Source: Escherichia phage Wphi. From it: a DNA stretch of 32,684 nucleotides. Location: sequence record AY135739; one strand, given 5' to 3'. Both the position numbers and the translations under genes were made by a program. The notes under the pieces are model-generated. The model saw only the letters and a list, made by a program, of their open reading frames with translations. It did no database searches and was not told the DNA's origin. Positions 26,237 through 32,684 of the stretch are shown piece by piece; the stretch's first letter is position 1, and each line of letters starts with the position of its first letter.

Positions 26237-28511
26237 AGCCTCCGGGCGTTTTGTCCCTCCGTCAGCATTTGCCGCAGGCACCGGTAAGGCGTTTACCGGT
26301 GCTTATGCATGGAACGCGCCACGCGAGGCTGTCGGGCGCGAAAGACCCCTTACACGTGACGAGATGCGTCAGGTGCAAGGTGTTTTATCCACGATTAACC
26401 GCCTGCCTTACTTTTTGCGCTCGCTGGTTACTTCACGCTATGACTACATCCGGCGCAATAAAAGCCCGGTGCACGGGTTTTATTTCCTTACATCCACTTT
26501 TCAGCGTCGTTTATGGCCGCGCATTGAGCGCGTGAATCAGCGCCATGAAATGAACACCGACGCGTCGTTGCTGTTTCTGGCAGAGCGTGACCATTATGCG
26601 CGCCTGCCTGGAATGAATGACAAGGAGCTGAAAAAGTTTGCTGCCCGTATCTCATCGCAGCTTTTCATGATGTATGAGGAACTCTGCGATGCATGGGTTG
26701 ATGCTCATGGCGAAAAAGAATCGCTGTTTACGGATGAGGCGCAGACTCACCTGTATGGTCATGTTGCTGGCGCTGCACGTGCTTTCAATATTTCCCCGCT
26801 CTACTGGAAAAAATACCGTAAAGGGCAGATGACCACGAGGCAGGCATATTCTGCCATTGCCCGCCTGTTTAACGATGAGTGGTGGACTCATCAGCTTAAA
26901 GGCCAGCGTATGCGCTGGCATGAGGCGTTACTGATTGCTGTCGGGGAGGTCAATAAAGACCGTTCTCCTTATGCCAGTAAACATGCCATTCGTGATGTGC
27001 GTGCGCGCCGCCAGGCAAATCTGGAATTTCTTAAATCGTGTGACCTTGAAAACAAGGAAACCGGCGAGCGCATCGACCTTATCAGTAAGGTGATGGGCAG
27101 TATTTCTAATCCAGAAATTCGCCGGATGGAGCTGATGAACACCATCGCCGGTATTGAGCGTTACGCCGCCGCAGAGGGTGATGTGGGGATGTTTATCACG
27201 CTGACCGCGCCGTCAAAGTATCACCCGACACGTCAGGTCAGAAAAGGCGAAAGTAAAACCGTCCAGCTAAATCACGGCTGGAACGATGAGGCATTTAATC
27301 CAAAGGATGCGCAGCGTTATCTCTGCCGTATCTGGAGCCTGATGCGCACGGCATTCAAGGATAATGATTTACAGGCCTACGGTTTGCGTGTTGTTGAACC
27401 ACACCACGACGGAACGCCGCACTGGCATATGATGCTTTTTTGTAATCCACGCCAGCGTAACCAGATTATTGAAATCATGCGTCGCTATGCGCTCAAAGAG
27501 GATGGCGACGAAAGAGGAGCCGCGCGAAACCGTTTTCAGGCAAAACACCTTAACCGGGGCGGTGCTGCGGGATATATCGCGAAATACATCTCAAAAAACA
27601 TCGACGGCTATGCACTGGATGGTCAGCTCGATAATGATACCGGCAGGCTGCTGAAAGACACTGCAGCGGCTGTTACCGCATGGGCGTCTACGTGGCGCAT
27701 TCCGCAATTTAAAACGGTTGGCCTGCCGACAATGGGGGCTTACCGTGAGCTACGCAAATTGCCTCGCGGCGTCAGCATTGCTGATGAGTTTGACGAACGC
27801 GTCGAGGCTGCACGCGCCGCCGCAGACAGTGGTGATTTTGCGCTGTATATCAGCGCGCAGGGCGGGGCAAATGTCCCGCGCGATTGTCAGACTGTCAGGG
27901 TCGCCCGTAGCCCGTCGGATGACGTTAACGAGTACGAGGAAGAAGTCGAGAGAGTGGTAGGCATTTACGCGCCGCATCTCGGCGCGCGTCATATTCATAT
28001 CACCAGAACGACGGACTGGCGCATTGTGCCGAAAGTTCCGGTCGTTGAGCCTTTGACTTTAAAAAGCGGCATCGCCGCGCCTCGGAGTCCTGTCAATAAC
28101 TGTGGAAAGCCTGCCAGCAGTGATAATTCGTTACCGGCTCCCACGCCTTCTGAGCACGCCGCAGCAGTGCTTAATCTGGTTGATGACGGTGTTATCGAAT
28201 GGAATGACCCGGAGGTCGTGAGGGCGCTCAGGGGCGCATTAAAACACGGGCTGAGAACACCAAATCGTCAGCAGAGAAACGGAAGCCCGTTAAAAACACA
28301 TGAAATTGCACCGTCGGCCAGACTGACCCGGTCGGAACGAATGCAAATTACCCGTATCCGCGTTGACCTCGCTCAGAACGGTATCAGGCCGCAGCGATGG
28401 GAGCTTGAGGCGCTGGCGCGTGGCGCGACCGTAAATTATGACGGGAAAAAATTCACGTATCCAGTCGCTGATGAGTGGCCGGGATTCTCAACAGTAATGG
28501 AGTGGACATGA
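26226..28511 (+). CDS. A: rolling-circle replication initiator endonuclease
   Basis: Start placed at ATG 26226 (MAVKASGRFVPPS...), 761 aa as for P2 gpA; contains HUH-like HWHMMLF and catalytic-tyrosine region GYIAKYISKN. Confidence 0.88.
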   Translation: MAVKASGRFVPPSAFAAGTGKAFTGAYAWNAPREAVGRERPLTRDEMRQVQGVLSTINRLPYFLRSLVTSRYDYIRRNKSPVHGFYFLTSTFQRRLWPRIERVNQRHEMNTDASLLFLAERDHYARLPGMNDKELKKFAARISSQLFMMYEELCDAWVDAHGEKESLFTDEAQTHLYGHVAGAARAFNISPLYWKKYRKGQMTTRQAYSAIARLFNDEWWTHQLKGQRMRWHEALLIAVGEVNKDRSPYASKHAIRDVRARRQANLEFLKSCDLENKETGERIDLISKVMGSISNPEIRRMELMNTIAGIERYAAAEGDVGMFITLTAPSKYHPTRQVRKGESKTVQLNHGWNDEAFNPKDAQRYLCRIWSLMRTAFKDNDLQAYGLRVVEPHHDGTPHWHMMLFCNPRQRNQIIEIMRRYALKEDGDERGAARNRFQAKHLNRGGAAGYIAKYISKNIDGYALDGQLDNDTGRLLKDTAAAVTAWASTWRIPQFKTVGLPTMGAYRELRKLPRGVSIADEFDERVEAARAAADSGDFALYISAQGGANVPRDCQTVRVARSPSDDVNEYEEEVERVVGIYAPHLGARHIHITRTTDWRIVPKVPVVEPLTLKSGIAAPRSPVNNCGKPASSDNSLPAPTPSEHAAAVLNLVDDGVIEWNDPEVVRALRGALKHGLRTPNRQQRNGSPLKTHEIAPSARLTRSERMQITRIRVDLAQNGIRPQRWELEALARGATVNYDGKKFTYPVADEWPGFSTVMEWT

Positions 28512-28789
28512 TGGCAAAAATTCACGAGGTAAAGCTGCACGCAAAATATTTCGACCTTGTGCTGGAAGGAAAGAAACGCGCAGAGTTTCGGAAAAATGAC
28601 CGTAATTATGAGCGCGGGGACACGTTGATTTTGCATGAATGGGTACAGGGTGTGTTTACGGGGCGAAAGGTTGAAGCCCGGATAACAGATGTTACTGACC
28701 TGTCAGACTGGCTGGAAGATTATGTCTTGCTAAGTATTGAGCTGCTTAATACAGGCGTATATGAGATTGTGAACTGGAAAGAAACTTAG
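28508..28789 (+). CDS. hypothetical protein, ASCH/DUF3850-like (P2 orf91 position)
   Basis: ATG at 28508 overlaps the A stop (ATGA); about 93 aa MMAKIHEVKLHAKYFDLVLEGKKRAEFRKNDRNYERGD... Confidence 0.55.
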   Translation: MMAKIHEVKLHAKYFDLVLEGKKRAEFRKNDRNYERGDTLILHEWVQGVFTGRKVEARITDVTDLSDWLEDYVLLSIELLNTGVYEIVNWKET

Positions 28790-29023: not shown

Positions 29024-29380
29024 TGGCTATTGTTCAGCGTTTACCAGCGGATTATGGTCAACGAAAATCTGACGCCCGATGAGCTGGTCGGGTGTGCCGA
29101 AATAGTCCGGGATAATTACGGGCGGTTTAACCATATCGGTCAGTCCAGAGTTGCGCCACCACAACGCAGACGATAGAGAACGCCGCCAGTCGTGAAACTT
29201 GTTTTCAGGGCTGGCGGGGTTGAATAACGAGTGTCGCGAGGCGTTAGTTTGAGCTTACAATTAAACCTATTGAAAATTAATGAGAAGTCAATTTTATCTT
29301 TTTCTCGTTAAAGATGGCCACAACTACTAAAACGTGAGAATATCAAGACTTGGCAAAATCTAGCTTTTCCCAACGGGGTG

Positions 29381-29418
29381 TTTCGCTATAATACGCGGTC
29401 GGTTTTTAGGAGGGGTCA
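29381..29418 (+). promoter_or_regulatory. putative promoter -10 element and RBS for the methyltransferase gene
   Basis: Consensus TATAAT at 29387-29392; AGGAGG at 29407-29412, 6 nt before the ATG; no good -35 seen. Confidence 0.4.
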
Positions 29419-30357
29419 ATGCCAACTGTAGTTTCACTTTTTTCTGGATGTGGTGGTTCTGATGCGGGAGTTTTGAACGCAGGTTTCAATGTGCTTATGG
29501 CAAATGATATTTTGCCTTACGCAAGGGACGTTTACTTAGAAAACCATCCTGAAACTGACTACATTTTGGGCGATATCTCAGGGCTCCAGTCGTTCCCTTC
29601 TGCTGAGTTGCTCATCGGATGCTATCCTTGCCAAGGATTTAGTCAAGGTGGGGCAAGGAAGGCAGATAGAAAGATTAATACACTATATTTAGAGTTTGCC
29701 CGTGCTTTGAGTAAAATTAAGCCAAAAGCATTCATTGTAGAGAATGTCTCTGGTATGGTAAGGCGTAACTTTGAGCATTTATTAAAGGATCAATTCAAAG
29801 TTTTCGAAGAAGCAGGTTATACAGTAAGCTCGCAAATTCTGAATGCGTCCCATTATGGGGTATCCCAAGATAGGAAGCGAATCTTTATCGTAGGAATACG
29901 AAAGGACTACGGTATTACATACAAATTTCCAAAACCAACACATGGTGATGGTTTGACACCATATTCCACAATTCGTGATGCTATTGGGCATATGCCTGTT
30001 TGGCCTGTTGGCGAGTTTTATGACGCCGATTTTCATTGGTATTATCTATCGCGAAACCGTAGGCAAGATTGGGATCAGATATCTAAAACAATTGTTGCAA
30101 ATCCTAGACATATGCCTCTACATCCAATAAGTCCAACATTAGAAAAATTGGGACCTGATAAGTGGCAATTTACTTCGGATGCACCAGCTCGTAGGTTTAG
30201 CTATCGAGAGGCTGCTATTTTACAAGGTTTTGGAGATTTAATTTTCCCAGAAACTGAACGGGCTTCTATTAATATGAAATATACTGTGGTAGGTAATGCA
30301 GTACCGCCTCCATTGTTTGAGGCGGTTGCTAGAAACCTTCCAGATTTATGGGATTAA
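29419..30357 (+). CDS. DNA (cytosine-5)-methyltransferase
   Basis: 312 aa with C5-MTase motifs in canonical order: FSGCGG (motif I), PCQGFS (motif IV, catalytic Cys), ENV (motif VI), QDRKR (motif VIII), GNAVPPPL (motif X); AT-rich gene. Confidence 0.85.
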   Translation: MPTVVSLFSGCGGSDAGVLNAGFNVLMANDILPYARDVYLENHPETDYILGDISGLQSFPSAELLIGCYPCQGFSQGGARKADRKINTLYLEFARALSKIKPKAFIVENVSGMVRRNFEHLLKDQFKVFEEAGYTVSSQILNASHYGVSQDRKRIFIVGIRKDYGITYKFPKPTHGDGLTPYSTIRDAIGHMPVWPVGEFYDADFHWYYLSRNRRQDWDQISKTIVANPRHMPLHPISPTLEKLGPDKWQFTSDAPARRFSYREAAILQGFGDLIFPETERASINMKYTVVGNAVPPPLFEAVARNLPDLWD

Positions 30358-31391
30358 GCAGCGATCGCGCTGGAAGGATCAAGGATGATATCTAGATAGC
30401 TAATATTTTGACTGTGATCAATATTATCAGATGCTCTGGTTAAATTGATTAATCTTAGGCGATCAACAAAAATAGCATCGCCTAACTTATTTTTATGTGC
30501 CCACTCACCATCTATCCATCGTAGATCTTGAGGTAAGAAATAATAAGTTGCCCATCGGTGAGCTACGGGGAATTTACTGTAGAGCATCGCAGGTGAGGCC
30601 TCAAGCTGCTTCGCTTCCCACTCTTCTTGAGAACAGCCACACTGAACAAAAGAAATAGGGATGGCATCTCGTTGATCTCCCATTGGATGCCAGGCAATTA
30701 TGTCAAGGCCTCCGTCACCACTATTTCCTCGACTGAAATCTCGTTCTTTGAAGTTCGCTGTGCAACGGATATCGGAAGCAATACTCTTAAATTTATTATA
30801 TAGAGTTCCAGTGTAAGGGGCCGCTTGACCACCAGAAGCCCAGCATGCTTTTATTATGCTACCGCTAGGCATTAGGCTTTCAAAAATAGGTAAACTAATT
30901 AGTTCAAAACTGCGCGTTATCTCTCTTCTGCTCATTATGTTGACATATTTTATGTTAGCACAGATTAGTAAAGCTAAATATAGTCTTTCTAAATGTTCCA
31001 GTGGCTTTTCTGATATATCACGTAACTCTACAGTATCGTTGTCTTCTGATAAAGTAAAAGGGTAACTATCCCCAAATAAATCAATGCGTTGTCGTATGAA
31101 GCCTATCGCATAGCTCCACTTTCTGTCAGTATATGCTCGACTAACACTTCGTTTTGTTCTCTTGCGTACAGGCGTATCATTTTCATCATCAACATCATAA
31201 ACGCCCTCTTCTTCTGCTTCATCTGTTTCAGCTAGTACTGCTTCGGGTTGAGCTTGCAGTGTGCTATATAGGTCTCCTCGACTGAATGACCTGTCGATAT
31301 TAGTTAAGGCCAATATCTCAATATAATCAGCCCATAAATAAGGCTCATTAGAAGGCATTGAATCAAGATTTGTAATCATAATCTCAATCAT
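30354..31391 (-). CDS. hypothetical protein, second gene of leftward operon, convergent with the methyltransferase
   Basis: Start assigned to ATG 31389-31391 abutting GGGAGG (alternative ATG 31377-31379), about 345 aa; acidic tract ETDEAEEEGVYDVDDEND; stop codon overlaps the MTase stop (TTAA); AT-rich. Confidence 0.6.
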   Translation of the reverse strand: MIEIMITNLDSMPSNEPYLWADYIEILALTNIDRSFSRGDLYSTLQAQPEAVLAETDEAEEEGVYDVDDENDTPVRKRTKRSVSRAYTDRKWSYAIGFIRQRIDLFGDSYPFTLSEDNDTVELRDISEKPLEHLERLYLALLICANIKYVNIMSRREITRSFELISLPIFESLMPSGSIIKACWASGGQAAPYTGTLYNKFKSIASDIRCTANFKERDFSRGNSGDGGLDIIAWHPMGDQRDAIPISFVQCGCSQEEWEAKQLEASPAMLYSKFPVAHRWATYYFLPQDLRWIDGEWAHKNKLGDAIFVDRLRLINLTRASDNIDHSQNISYLDIILDPSSAIAA

Positions 31392-32457
31392 CCTCCCTTT
31401 TGCTTCTGATCTGATTTCTAATATTTTTTGACATCTCAAAAATTTCAGATGCAGCCTCTTCATGCTCTAATGTTAATTCTTTAGCTTTAAGTAGCATATC
31501 CCAAACTACTCTTAATTTAACACTAGCTGCGTTTAGTGCTTTATCTAATGCTTCTCTTTCTCCGCTGGTATATAGATATGCTTCATCCAAGTTTGAACTT
31601 TTCATGAGAATTTCAATTGCTTCGGGTTTCTCAACCACTGCTGCAATATCTTTTATTCTTCGAGACTCACCGATGATGGTTCTACCTTGTTGGTCAGGCA
31701 CAAAAAACCAAGAGAATAAACGCTTAAGGTTTTCTTCATTTAAATTTGGGTCTAAAAAATCCTTTTTATCCTGTAGACCTAACCAGTTTGTGATTTTTGA
31801 ATATCCCAAAGCTGTGGTTATATATGAAAATTCCACGTCAGAAGCCTTCATGGGTAAATTAAAAAACTCATGGTCATGCGCGACTTCATATAAGTTCAGT
31901 GCAGTGAGAAGTGTTGCAACATAATGTGGTTTACTCCCAATCTCACGAGCCAGATTTTTTAATACTATCTCTTTAGGTTCATGTGAATAAAAAGTATCAC
32001 ATAACTCTTTAAGGTATTTGGCTTTAGATAATGAGTCCCATTCTTTGACCCCAGTTATATGACGATAACCGATATATCTCAGTACATCCTCTCGGTTTTC
32101 ATAAATGATGCAGGGAAGCTTCTTAGGTTTATTGGTAGTATCATCAATGATTTCTTGCACACCTTTAAGTTTTCTTTTTGGAGGAAGCAGATCTCCATTG
32201 AGCAACTTTACAGCAGCTAAGCGTCTGTTTCCCTCAACCACGATGTAGTTTCCATTGCTTTTTACTGCCAATAAAGGTTCTCCAGGAAAGTAACCTTGCT
32301 GACCGATTGATAGCATTAGATCGTGGACACTTTCGTCATCTAACATTTCCTCAATGACTGTTGCAGCGTTACTGGCATCATTGAGACGAAAGAAACGTGG
32401 GTTTTTAGGGTCAAAATCAAGCTTATTTGTCTCAATTTCTACGATTTTGTTATCCAT
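31384..32457 (-). CDS. ParB/Srx-fold (ParB N-terminal domain-like) protein
   Basis: Start assigned to ATG 32455-32457 with GAGG RBS about 5 nt upstream (357 aa; ORF-track maximum 401 aa); ParB-box-like FDPKNPRF and VVEGNRRLAAVKLL; overlaps downstream gene by 8 nt. Confidence 0.65.
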   Translation of the reverse strand: MDNKIVEIETNKLDFDPKNPRFFRLNDASNAATVIEEMLDDESVHDLMLSIGQQGYFPGEPLLAVKSNGNYIVVEGNRRLAAVKLLNGDLLPPKRKLKGVQEIIDDTTNKPKKLPCIIYENREDVLRYIGYRHITGVKEWDSLSKAKYLKELCDTFYSHEPKEIVLKNLAREIGSKPHYVATLLTALNLYEVAHDHEFFNLPMKASDVEFSYITTALGYSKITNWLGLQDKKDFLDPNLNEENLKRLFSWFFVPDQQGRTIIGESRRIKDIAAVVEKPEAIEILMKSSNLDEAYLYTSGEREALDKALNAASVKLRVVWDMLLKAKELTLEHEEAASEIFEMSKNIRNQIRSKREDD

Positions 32458-32684
32458 CTTAACCTCATGGGATGATGTAAATATCTTTTGGGGGATGCTT
32501 GATAAAACATCCATATTTGATCGTTTGCAGCGCATTTGATACATCGAAGTGTACAAAAATGCTGGGCATAACTCTGCATTAAAATGCATTCACATTCAAA
32601 GCACTATTTTCTCGTTGGACATTTAGCCTAAGAGAGTTTGGACGGCTTTTGGAATTGCATCAAAACCGACCCATGAAGCGGGCG

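Follow-up and report, generated by a model that had tools for sequence, protein, structure and literature searches.

A predicted winged-helix and PD-(D/E)xK-like protein paired with a ParB/KorB-like protein in a restriction-modification-like cassette of a P2-like prophage

What could be the role of a protein whose gene is packed between a ParB-like gene and a DNA methyltransferase gene in a prophage? The question is raised by a protein of 345 aa, as annotated, encoded on the minus strand at positions 30354..31391 of the window (the whole stretch of 32,684 nucleotides analysed here, Escherichia phage Wphi, record AY135739). A sequence-only reading had described it as uncharacterised, translationally coupled to the upstream ParB-like gene and possibly an effector or an endonuclease. 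The reading frame does exist: it is present in the window, the RefSeq entry WP_000570053.1 ("hypothetical protein", E. coli W) has identical ends, the homologues are far above chance and the peptides quoted in that reading are found in the translation. A mechanical ORF of 369 aa beginning at 31463 was rejected, as it would run 80 nt into the ParB-like gene and is not backed by homologues.

The beginning of the gene was examined with respect to the proposed coupling. With the ATG at 31391-31389, the gene overlaps the ParB-like gene, whose TGA is at 31386-31384, by 8 nt (ATGATTGA), as had been claimed, and a Shine-Dalgarno-like GGGAGG (31392..31397, minus strand) is indeed read within the final codons of the ParB-like gene. 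This motif is, however, at 0 nt from ATG 31391 and, since no spacer separates them, it is not usable as the Shine-Dalgarno site of that codon; it is at 12 nt from the ATG at 31379 (Met5). In the alignment, Met5 corresponds to the N-terminal Met in at least 90% of the homologues, and the most common gene call among them (P0001, 341 aa, 292 member sequences) begins at Met5. Judged from these sequences, the true start is probably ATG 31379 rather than 31391, giving 341 aa and a gap of 4 nt in place of the overlap, and the two genes are closely packed under either start codon. At the other end, the overlap with the opposite-strand methyltransferase is exact, the stop codons of the two convergent genes sharing the TTAA at 30354..30357 (sequence and ORF ends; no strand assigned).

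The three genes form a small cassette of 3.2 kb located between gene A and the portal gene Q in the P2-like prophage of the laboratory strain E. coli W, an interval which is a defence hotspot, the tin/old hotspot of P2 (PMC9122126, PMC9519451). The G+C content of the cassette is 38-41%, versus 51-57% for gene A. A P4-type satellite was rejected as an identity for the window, gene A and the portal and capsid genes being marks of a P2-like prophage. The cassette was found in 104 of 5,426 complete E. coli genomes (~2%), and two natural disruptions leave the methylase gene intact: in strain JXZ9A32M an IS5 splits the nuclease-candidate gene, and in strain E2 an IS2 lies upstream of the ParB-like gene. 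Accession numbers of the cassette appear among the hotspots of Table S5A of Rousset et al. 2022, with no test reported, and no description of it was found in the literature on PDC-M38, on prophage ParB with cytosine methylase or on ParB, CTP and phage defence.

The 345-aa protein belongs to a large family. At 50% identity the family amounts to 1,584 clusters (E <= 1e-3), almost all of them of ~300-370 aa, and 203 homologues, the best with E = 2e-228, come from a 90%-identity database. Its comparison with Pfam, NCBIfam and PADLOC gave zero matches, and the only PHROGs matches were phrog_3984 and phrog_14650, both of "unknown function". Among PDB sequences, phmmer with the protein and a search with the family profile returned zero real matches, an aldolase at E = 0.07 being dismissed as noise, and the best Foldseek hit against the PDB (E-value 0.06) was not significant. 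Mrr_cat (PF04471) was marginal in two of 74 family members (best E = 0.13 in a Pfam scan at E <= 10); the 345-aa query did not reach the gathering score of Mrr_cat and did not match it even at E <= 10, and hhalign of the family profile with an Mrr-like protein aligned only a 13-residue GDGGID stretch, with a probability of 6.7%.

The AF2 model of the protein (pLDDT 93.5, pTM 0.91) contains the alpha-beta-beta-beta-alpha-beta core of the PD-(D/E)xK superfamily, predicted at approximately residues 150-320 (30432..30944, minus strand), with E163 on alpha1 and with D310-R-x-R313. A search for this fold had been suggested as a check in the sequence-only reading, and its outcome, as far as a predicted structure goes, favours the guess of an effector or endonuclease. 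The core is preceded by an N-terminal winged-helix-like domain (approximately residues 1-130; 31002..31391, minus strand), in which P13, D22, R102 and P111 are invariant and E25 is found in 48 of 49 sequences. The acidic segment followed by a basic patch, which had also drawn attention, is present (approximately residues 50-88; 31128..31244, minus strand), and the pLDDT falls to 78-80 across it. It is an insertion confined to the closest enterobacterial clade (E. coli, Citrobacter, Morganella), with a gap in all remaining homologues of the alignment; it was therefore rejected as a functional motif and is not a hallmark of the family.

In contrast, the cluster of Asp, Glu and His residues that had looked conserved proved to be so: G225-D-G-G and D230 do not vary among 49 sequences whose identities range over 21-89%. 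The corresponding GDGGLD lies ahead of beta2 (30702-30719, minus strand). Among these 49 members, from approximately eight phyla, the candidate active-site residues D226, D230, D239, Q250 (on beta3; 30642-30644, minus strand) and K261 (30609-30611, minus strand) are invariant, and E163 is present in 48. Of the catalytic signature of the superfamily (Glu on alpha1, Asp at the start of beta2, (D/E/Q)-x-K on beta3), E163, D230 and Q250 are present, but the lysine is not: all 49 members carry Gly or Ala at position 252. The motif reads Qx(G/A), and the invariant K261 follows 11 residues after Q250, on the next helix. Catalysis would therefore require a relocated lysine, for which we infer that K261 could be the substitute. 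The replacement of the second acid by Q is known in active Mrr/MspJI-type enzymes. These enzymes, including the HARE-HTH and REase proteins of dnd neighbourhoods, have QxK where the present family has Qx(G/A), and the Mrr/MspJI enzymes attack modified DNA, an activity that the neighbouring methylase would make suicidal for the cassette protein.

The upstream gene (31384..32457, minus strand) encodes a ParB/KorB-like protein of 357 aa, whose predicted ParB-CTPase fold is accompanied by an HTH DNA-binding domain and by long C-terminal helices. Its P-motif, E75-G-N-R-R-L-A-A82 (32212-32235, minus strand), has six of eight residues invariant and A81 conserved in at least 90% of the sequences, and the NTP motif GxxRxxA is invariant. 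The features of a ParB/KorB CTPase clamp, namely the ParB-N fold, the GxxRxxA P-motif and the HTH, are thus all found in this protein. It falls outside the partition family by score (29.9 bits against a TIGR00180 cut-off of 58.45) and scores 15 with Pfam ParB_N, for which the cut-off is 26.3; the annotation of the cassette contains no ParA-like gene.

To what extent the two proteins belong together was apparent from the gene context of 101 loci (46 genome, 55 viral) from approximately eight phyla and from phages. A ParB-like gene lies directly upstream on the same strand in all 43 genome loci in which the nuclease gene is intact and the sequence extends upstream of it, and directly upstream of the nuclease gene in 53 of the 55 viral loci, which were seeded from the ParB side. 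The two proteins co-diverge: their pairwise identities are correlated with r = 0.93, whereas the coefficients with the methylase are 0.61 and 0.56. An obligatory ParB-like neighbour with an intact NTP motif argues against a stand-alone endonuclease.

The convergent gene (29419..30357, plus strand) encodes a C5 cytosine DNA methyltransferase of 312 aa (Pfam DNA_methylase, PF00145, 1e-61), which is similar over its full length to M.HaeIII (1.6e-48) and is presumed to be the self-protecting modification enzyme. From this similarity a GGCC-like target motif can be weakly predicted. As in classical type II R-M systems, the genes of the methylase and of the candidate endonuclease are adjacent, here with overlapping stop codons. 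Of 46 genome loci, 37 have a C5-methylase adjoining the pair, as do 51 of 55 viral loci. Together with the 7 loci that have dndCDE, some modification module accompanies the pair in 44 of the 46 genome loci, and the remaining two are cut by contig ends. At one viral locus (L112), with distant relatives of the pair, a D12 (Dam-type) adenine methylase replaces the C5-methylase. The methylase gene is less than 400 bp from the pair in 36 of 39 complete triads, all three genes are on one strand in 10 loci, and two loci (L005 and L011) also carry Vsr, which repairs m5C deamination. The R-M-like or toxin-immunity-like arrangement that had been suggested is supported, as both a DNA-modification gene and a ParB-like gene accompany the protein across phyla. 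The methylase is nevertheless evolutionarily uncoupled from the pair, since methylases 97% identical in aa are paired with ParB-like and nuclease proteins that are only 32% and 21% identical, respectively; phage vB_EcoM-12474II encodes a divergent version of the pair. The same methylase beside divergent pairs, together with the chemically different marks, is hard to fit with a site-matched type II enzyme.

Taken together, these data lead us to consider it rather likely that the three genes make up an R-M-like defence cassette, carried at a cargo hotspot by a P2-like prophage, and that the 345-aa protein acts as its nuclease subunit. The support is computational: the predicted fold of both proteins, the invariant candidate residues, the P-motif, the pairing and the adjacency of modification modules all point to this reading. 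The HaeIII-like m5C methylase would mark the DNA of the host and of the prophage; the ParB/KorB-like protein would bind DNA by its HTH, its NTP-binding ParB fold acting as a switch or a clamp, and would recruit or license the winged-helix and PD-(D/E)xK-like protein, which would cut DNA devoid of the methylase mark. We infer that the 345-aa protein would have nuclease activity, that the cassette would be NTP-dependent, that the ParB-like and nuclease proteins would be in physical contact, that modification would protect DNA and that the cassette would confer an anti-phage phenotype.

The closest validated relative is PD-lambda-5 (Vassallo et al. 2022, PMC9519451), carried by a P2-like prophage in E. 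coli ECOR7. It consists of a ParB/HEPN protein and a methyltransferase, and experiments validated it as a broad defence. Both combine a ParB domain, an effector and a DNA methylase as cargo of E. coli prophages, in the same type of hotspot, and the ParB-like N-terminal domains are homologous (PADLOC PD-Lambda-5_A, E = 3e-24), but within this profile the alignment with the partner covers the first ~158 positions only. In PD-lambda-5A the effector is HEPN/DUF4145-like and fused to the ParB domain, whereas here it is a separate winged-helix and REase-fold protein; the partner thus differs from component A, a protein of ~500 aa with ParB-N and a C-terminal HEPN/DUF4145-like region. Component B also differs, being a D12 (MethyltransfD12) adenine methylase where the cassette has a C5-cytosine enzyme.

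LlaJI and BsuMI are McrBC-like pairs with m5C methylases and perform NTP-dependent restriction of unmethylated DNA. The logic proposed for the cassette resembles theirs, with an NTPase and a PD-(D/E)xK nuclease as separate subunits and with cytosine-5 methylase(s) protecting self DNA, but its NTPase has the ParB/KorB CTPase fold instead of that of an AAA+ GTPase, and no relation to McrB or McrC in sequence or fold is known. No sequence similarity was found between the 345-aa protein and the CCGG-family enzymes NgoMIV, Cfr10I, Bse634I, SgrAI, AgeI, BsaWI and Kpn2I; type IIP/IIF enzymes of this family are stand-alone dimers or tetramers of strict site specificity, whereas the cassette protein does not occur without its ParB-like partner. 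In GmrSD/BrxU, SspE, PD-T4-2 and Menshen NsnA (PMC12065111), a ParB-fold NTP-binding and DNA-binding sensor is coupled to a nuclease and is often linked to modification (PT for SspE), as proposed for the cassette. These systems differ from it by their DGQQR-type DUF262, where the partner has a classical GxxRxxA and a KorB/ParB-like HTH, and by their HNH (DUF1524), HEPN or BECR effectors, where the effector here has a REase fold.

Other explanations of the same data should be considered. The REase-fold domain could be catalytically dead and the protein a DNA-binding or modification-reading adaptor, the damage being done by the ParB-like protein or a host factor. The Gly or Ala at position 252 and the N-terminal winged helix, well suited to a reader, are in agreement with this hypothesis, members of the ParB superfamily can be nucleases or NTP-degrading enzymes, and ParB-DUF262 defence proteins (Menshen NsnA, PMC12065111) are known to contain inactive REase domains that serve only to bind DNA. 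However, E163 (in 48 of 49), D226, D230, D239, Q250 and K261 are kept in an active-site pattern across phyla at 21-30% identity, and such invariance over approximately eight phyla favours an active domain, as degenerate inactive domains rarely show it; moreover, the Pfam, NCBIfam and PADLOC scans reveal no other nuclease domain in the cassette. We regard a dead domain as unlikely. Slightly lower in our estimation is an abortive-infection or addiction module, in which methylation and the ParB-like protein would restrain a nuclease toxin that hits the cell's own DNA when infection disturbs the system or when the prophage is lost. PD-lambda-5 was called a compacted "RM+Abi" system by Vassallo et al. 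(PMC9519451) and its effector is HEPN-like, as suicide RNases typically are; exchangeable methylases and the pairing with PT and m6A would also agree more readily with a general "loss of modification" alarm than with restriction at matched sites. Against this, the effector here has a predicted DNase fold related to restriction enzymes and not a HEPN domain, and the co-occurrence of Vsr and the one-strand operon with a methylase (10 loci) are typical of R-M systems.

The dnd-linked clade, of which a Thalassotalea locus (L054) is an example, raises the further idea that the pair serves to regulate or to limit DNA modification, like DndB or a controller protein, instead of attacking foreign DNA, given that DndB, the regulator of the dnd operon, is itself a member of the ParB superfamily (PMC10853773). 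In this clade the pair is additional to dnd(B)CDE, and at one locus (L050) it is also beside DptH and an SBD-HNH enzyme. A DGQHR-motif DndB-like protein is encoded directly upstream of dndC, besides the pair, at L050, L052 and L054 (in L054 with a Pfam DndB match at E = 4e-129), so that the ParB-like protein was rejected as a replacement of DndB. It has no match to the DndB models of Pfam and NCBIfam either, and an invariant nuclease-like site would be unnecessary for a regulator; we judge such a role very improbable. At L051 and L053 a GmrSD-like gene adjoins the pair as a separate gene. Neither protein of the pair matches the Dnd/Dpt models of NCBIfam, and no homology to DndFGH, SspE, PbeABCD or DndI was found.

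Under the preferred reading of an R-M-like cassette, the large family to which the 345-aa protein belongs, absent from domain databases, gains, besides a predicted fold, a set of candidate catalytic residues and a role that experiments can address, and the ParB-CTPase fold gains a role beyond chromosome partition, as the obligatory partner of a predicted nuclease in R-M-like immunity. The presence of one two-protein module beside three chemically different self-marks raises the question of how "unmodified" is recognised, and the same question is raised in E. coli by a single methylase that accompanies two forms of the pair which have diverged strongly. One answer, which we put forward tentatively and hold to be possible rather than likely, is that the ParB-like protein and the non-canonical REase constitute a modification-agnostic engine, in which an NTP-gated clamp of the ParB/KorB type would scan DNA and license the nuclease where the self-mark is missing, the marks (m5C, Dam-type m6A and Dnd phosphorothioation) being interchangeable. 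If true, such an engine, together with PD-lambda-5, in which the nuclease would be swapped for a fused HEPN-like domain, would form a new R-M-like class built on the ParB-CTPase fold, and target discrimination would lie outside any site-matched endonuclease. For E. coli, the cassette may influence the host range of phages in therapy and the transfer of DNA into W-derived production strains.

The open reading frame at 30354..31391 (-), which the sequence-only reading had proposed as an effector or endonuclease gene coupled to its ParB-like neighbour, corresponds to an annotated gene (WP_000570053.1, "hypothetical protein"), and the claimed overlap was borne out, the annotated ATG (31391) lying 8 nt into the ParB-like gene (31384..32457 (-)), whose stop codon occupies 31386-31384. 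The minus-strand junction reads ...AGC AAA AGG GAG GAT GAT TGA GATT ATG ATT ACA.... The GGGAGG motif (31397-31392) is indeed located in the last codons of the ParB-like gene, but it abuts the ATG at 31391 with zero spacer. The next ATG (31379, Met5) lies 12 nt 3' of GGGAGG, is aligned to the initiator Met in at least 90% of homologues and is the start of the most frequent gene call (341 aa); we therefore think that 31379 is a more likely start than 31391. The two genes are closely packed whichever start holds. An extension to an ATG at 31463 (31392-31463 (-); 369 aa), which overlaps the ParB-like gene by 80 nt and has no homologue support, was rejected. The TTAA common to the convergent stop codons of the nuclease and C5 cytosine methylase (29419..30357 (+)) genes is present, as described before. 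The acidic and basic segment also exists, but it is an insertion confined to the nearest enterobacterial relatives.

The 345-aa protein has no match in Pfam, NCBIfam, PADLOC models or PDB sequences, and its PHROGs family (phrog_3984) is labelled "unknown function". All of its 203 homologues in a 90%-identity database are unnamed, and 1,584 clusters at E <= 1e-3 were retrieved when 1.84 billion representatives were searched with a profile; nearly all of the best 150 are 300-370 aa long, with a few shorter fragments and zero fusions. The AlphaFold2 model (74-sequence alignment) is confident (pLDDT 93.5, pTM 0.91), with a winged-helix-like domain at the N-terminus (about residues 1-130) and, in the C-terminal part, a predicted nuclease core (about residues 150-320). 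When 49 members (21-89% identity) from Proteobacteria, Campylobacterota, Bacteroidota, Chloroflexi, Acidobacteria, Verrucomicrobia, Armatimonadetes and Desulfobacterota were aligned, G225-D-G-G228, D230, D239, Q250, K261, P287 and D310-R-x-R313 were invariant and E163 was kept in 48; in the model, E163 is on the helix preceding beta1, D230 at the start of beta2 and Q250 on beta3. These residues resemble the GDGGID...QxK arrangement of Mrr-type enzymes, whereas the position of the lysine (252) is Gly or Ala in 49/49 members; the helix that follows carries the invariant K261, which would be the obvious candidate to substitute for the missing canonical lysine. The earlier reading of this protein as the endonuclease or effector of an R-M-like pair is supported by computation.

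The 357-aa partner gives weak matches to ParB_N (Pfam) and TIGR00180, and matches PADLOC PD-Lambda-5_A (E = 3e-24) over the N-terminal ~158 profile positions. Its P-motif, E75-G-N-R-R-L-A-A82, has six of eight residues invariant among 67 homologues, A81 being conserved in at least 90%. Based on these matches and this conservation, the partner has a ParB-CTPase fold and an HTH domain, with long helices at the C-terminus; no HEPN match was found in it.

The same gene triad recurred in four look-ups, once in a P2-like prophage of Enterobacter and otherwise in Ramlibacter, Oryzomicrobium and Methylotenera chromosomes. Taking one genome per species, a scan yielded 46 loci, whose ORFs were searched with HMMs: each of the 43 loci whose nuclease gene is intact and that include the DNA 5' of it has the ParB-like gene directly upstream, on the same strand, and a C5 methylase is found in 37 of the 46. 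In seven others (L044, L047, L050-L054, our handles for loci), dnd(B)CDE phosphorothioation genes adjoin the pair and dndCDE takes the place of the methylase; the remaining two are interrupted by contig ends. DndC, DndD and DndE of L054 are above NCBIfam cut-offs, and a DndB-like protein with a DGQHR motif is encoded 5' of dndC in L050, L052 and L054, Pfam DndB confirming the last. In the nuclease tree, the seven dnd loci make up one clade together with a locus that a contig end truncates. In L050 the pair has DptH and a PT-dependent SBD-HNH endonuclease as further neighbours; a GmrSD-type gene is upstream in L051 and L053, a HEPN_Swt1 gene downstream in L053, and the protein encoded downstream in L051, its translation read by eye, has an N-terminus like HARE-HTH and the Mrr-type motif GDGGID...QAKRY.

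Among 55 viral loci (IMG/VR, ParB-side seeding), the nuclease gene is next in 53 and a C5 methylase is found in 51, and the triad is present in Pseudomonas phage vB_PaeM-D14A. In one IMG/VR contig (L112 1197-4374) a distant pair, its nuclease aligning only weakly (E = 5e-8), faces a convergent gene for a D12-class adenine methylase. Vsr lies alongside the cassette in two loci, including the betaproteobacterial L005. In L005 (9373-12507) and the betaproteobacterial L022 (8104-11232), the gene for a ~1,044-aa protein with N6_Mtase motifs (type IIG-like) separates the pair from a C5 methylase of greater divergence.

Pairwise identities of the nuclease and the ParB-like protein are strongly correlated (r = 0.93, 39 complete triads), whereas their correlations with the methylase are only 0.61 and 0.56. 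In the extreme case, which is found within E. coli, the cassette of phage vB_EcoM-12474II (L008 4120-7156) has a methylase with 97% amino acid and 93% nucleotide identity to that at 29419-30357, while its ParB-like protein and nuclease are only 32% and 21-25% identical to those of the window; this combination of a near-identical methylase with a divergent pair occurs in other P2-like phages and is probably carried by 36 complete E. coli genomes. On these sequence comparisons, the ParB-like protein and nuclease behave like a single unit, with the methylase as a module that can be exchanged. The recombination break between the two cassette types falls at the convergent stop codons.

The region 29300-32684 is 100% identical to the chromosomes of E. 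coli W and of the W derivatives LY180 and KO11FL, and, among 5,426 complete genomes of E. coli, 104 have this entire region at >= 99% identity. The RefSeq record of strain W places it in a P2-like prophage inserted after cpxP, ordered integrase, C/Cox, replication gene A, DUF3850 gene, triad, portal gene Q, terminase and capsid genes. The triad thus sits in the gene A-gene Q interval, the tin/old locus of P2, a hotspot of anti-phage cargo according to two studies (PMC9122126; PMC9519451), and the G+C content of its three genes is 38-41% against 51-57% for gene A. Rousset et al. (PMC9122126) entered WP_000570053, WP_000368931 and WP_001143634 among P2 hotspot loci, together with a divergent variant ("DNA_methylase + hypothetical + ParBc"), testing being unreported for both. 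A terminator-like hairpin with a T-run (32669-32683 (-)), right after the portal gene end and 5' of the ParB-like gene, may divide the late operon from the cassette; a simple scan gave no promoter-like site for the latter. The P2 orf91-like DUF3850/ASCH gene adjoining gene A (28475-28789 (+)) encodes 104 aa as read and 150 aa as annotated in E. coli W (L001 28518-28970), with a 7-nt difference at the gene A end as well; the two sequences are likely to differ by a small indel. At the hotspot of the P2-like Yersinia phage L-413C (L055 207-1199), a ParB-like gene (34% identity over 79% of the query) overlaps orf91, and the nuclease and methylase genes are absent; this lone gene is probably a remnant.

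In the mechanism that we consider most likely, the methylase would mark self DNA, the ParB/KorB-like protein would bind DNA and be switched or clamped by NTP binding, and the winged-helix/REase protein would cleave DNA lacking the mark. Computation gave the folds, the residue conservation, the linkage of the genes and their co-divergence, whereas activity, NTP dependence, interaction, methylation protection and phenotype are inferred. The nuclease gene is split by IS5 in E. coli JXZ9A32M (L057 1555-3783), and IS2 is inserted just upstream of the operon, between the ParB-like and portal genes, in E. coli E2 (L058 3817-5045), the methylase gene being intact in both; these anecdotal disruptions are compatible with a costly restriction arm. 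Since the pair accompanies three chemically different marks and one methylase is common to very divergent pairs, the data suggest that DNA is not discriminated in the way of a classical type II enzyme with a matched site.

A nuclease-fold protein serving as an inactive reader subunit is unlikely in our opinion, and an abortive-infection or addiction toxin seems to us slightly more doubtful still. That the pair only regulates modification is very improbable, and is weakened by the presence of DndB beside it.

The closest comparison for the proposed restriction cassette is PD-lambda-5, which Vassallo et al. (PMC9519451) obtained by selection from a fosmid library of E. coli, recorded as "ParB/HEPN, methyltransferase", requiring a host without mrr, protecting against 9/10 phages and read by its authors as a compact "RM+Abi" system. 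Their HHpred table gives ParBc at residues 6-89 and weak DUF4145/HEPN hits near the C-terminus for protein A, and MethyltransfD12 for protein B, the methylase class found in L112. The two cassettes have the ParB-like domain and the logic in common, but the Wphi effector is a separate REase-fold protein and its methylase is C5-cytosine instead of D12. The pair is not described in the parts consulted of reviews on ParB-fold diversity (PMC12704722) and Dnd neighbourhoods (PMC10853773). Computation supports the Wphi cassette as an R-M-like defence built with a ParB-fold NTPase, a kind whose validated cousin is PD-lambda-5.
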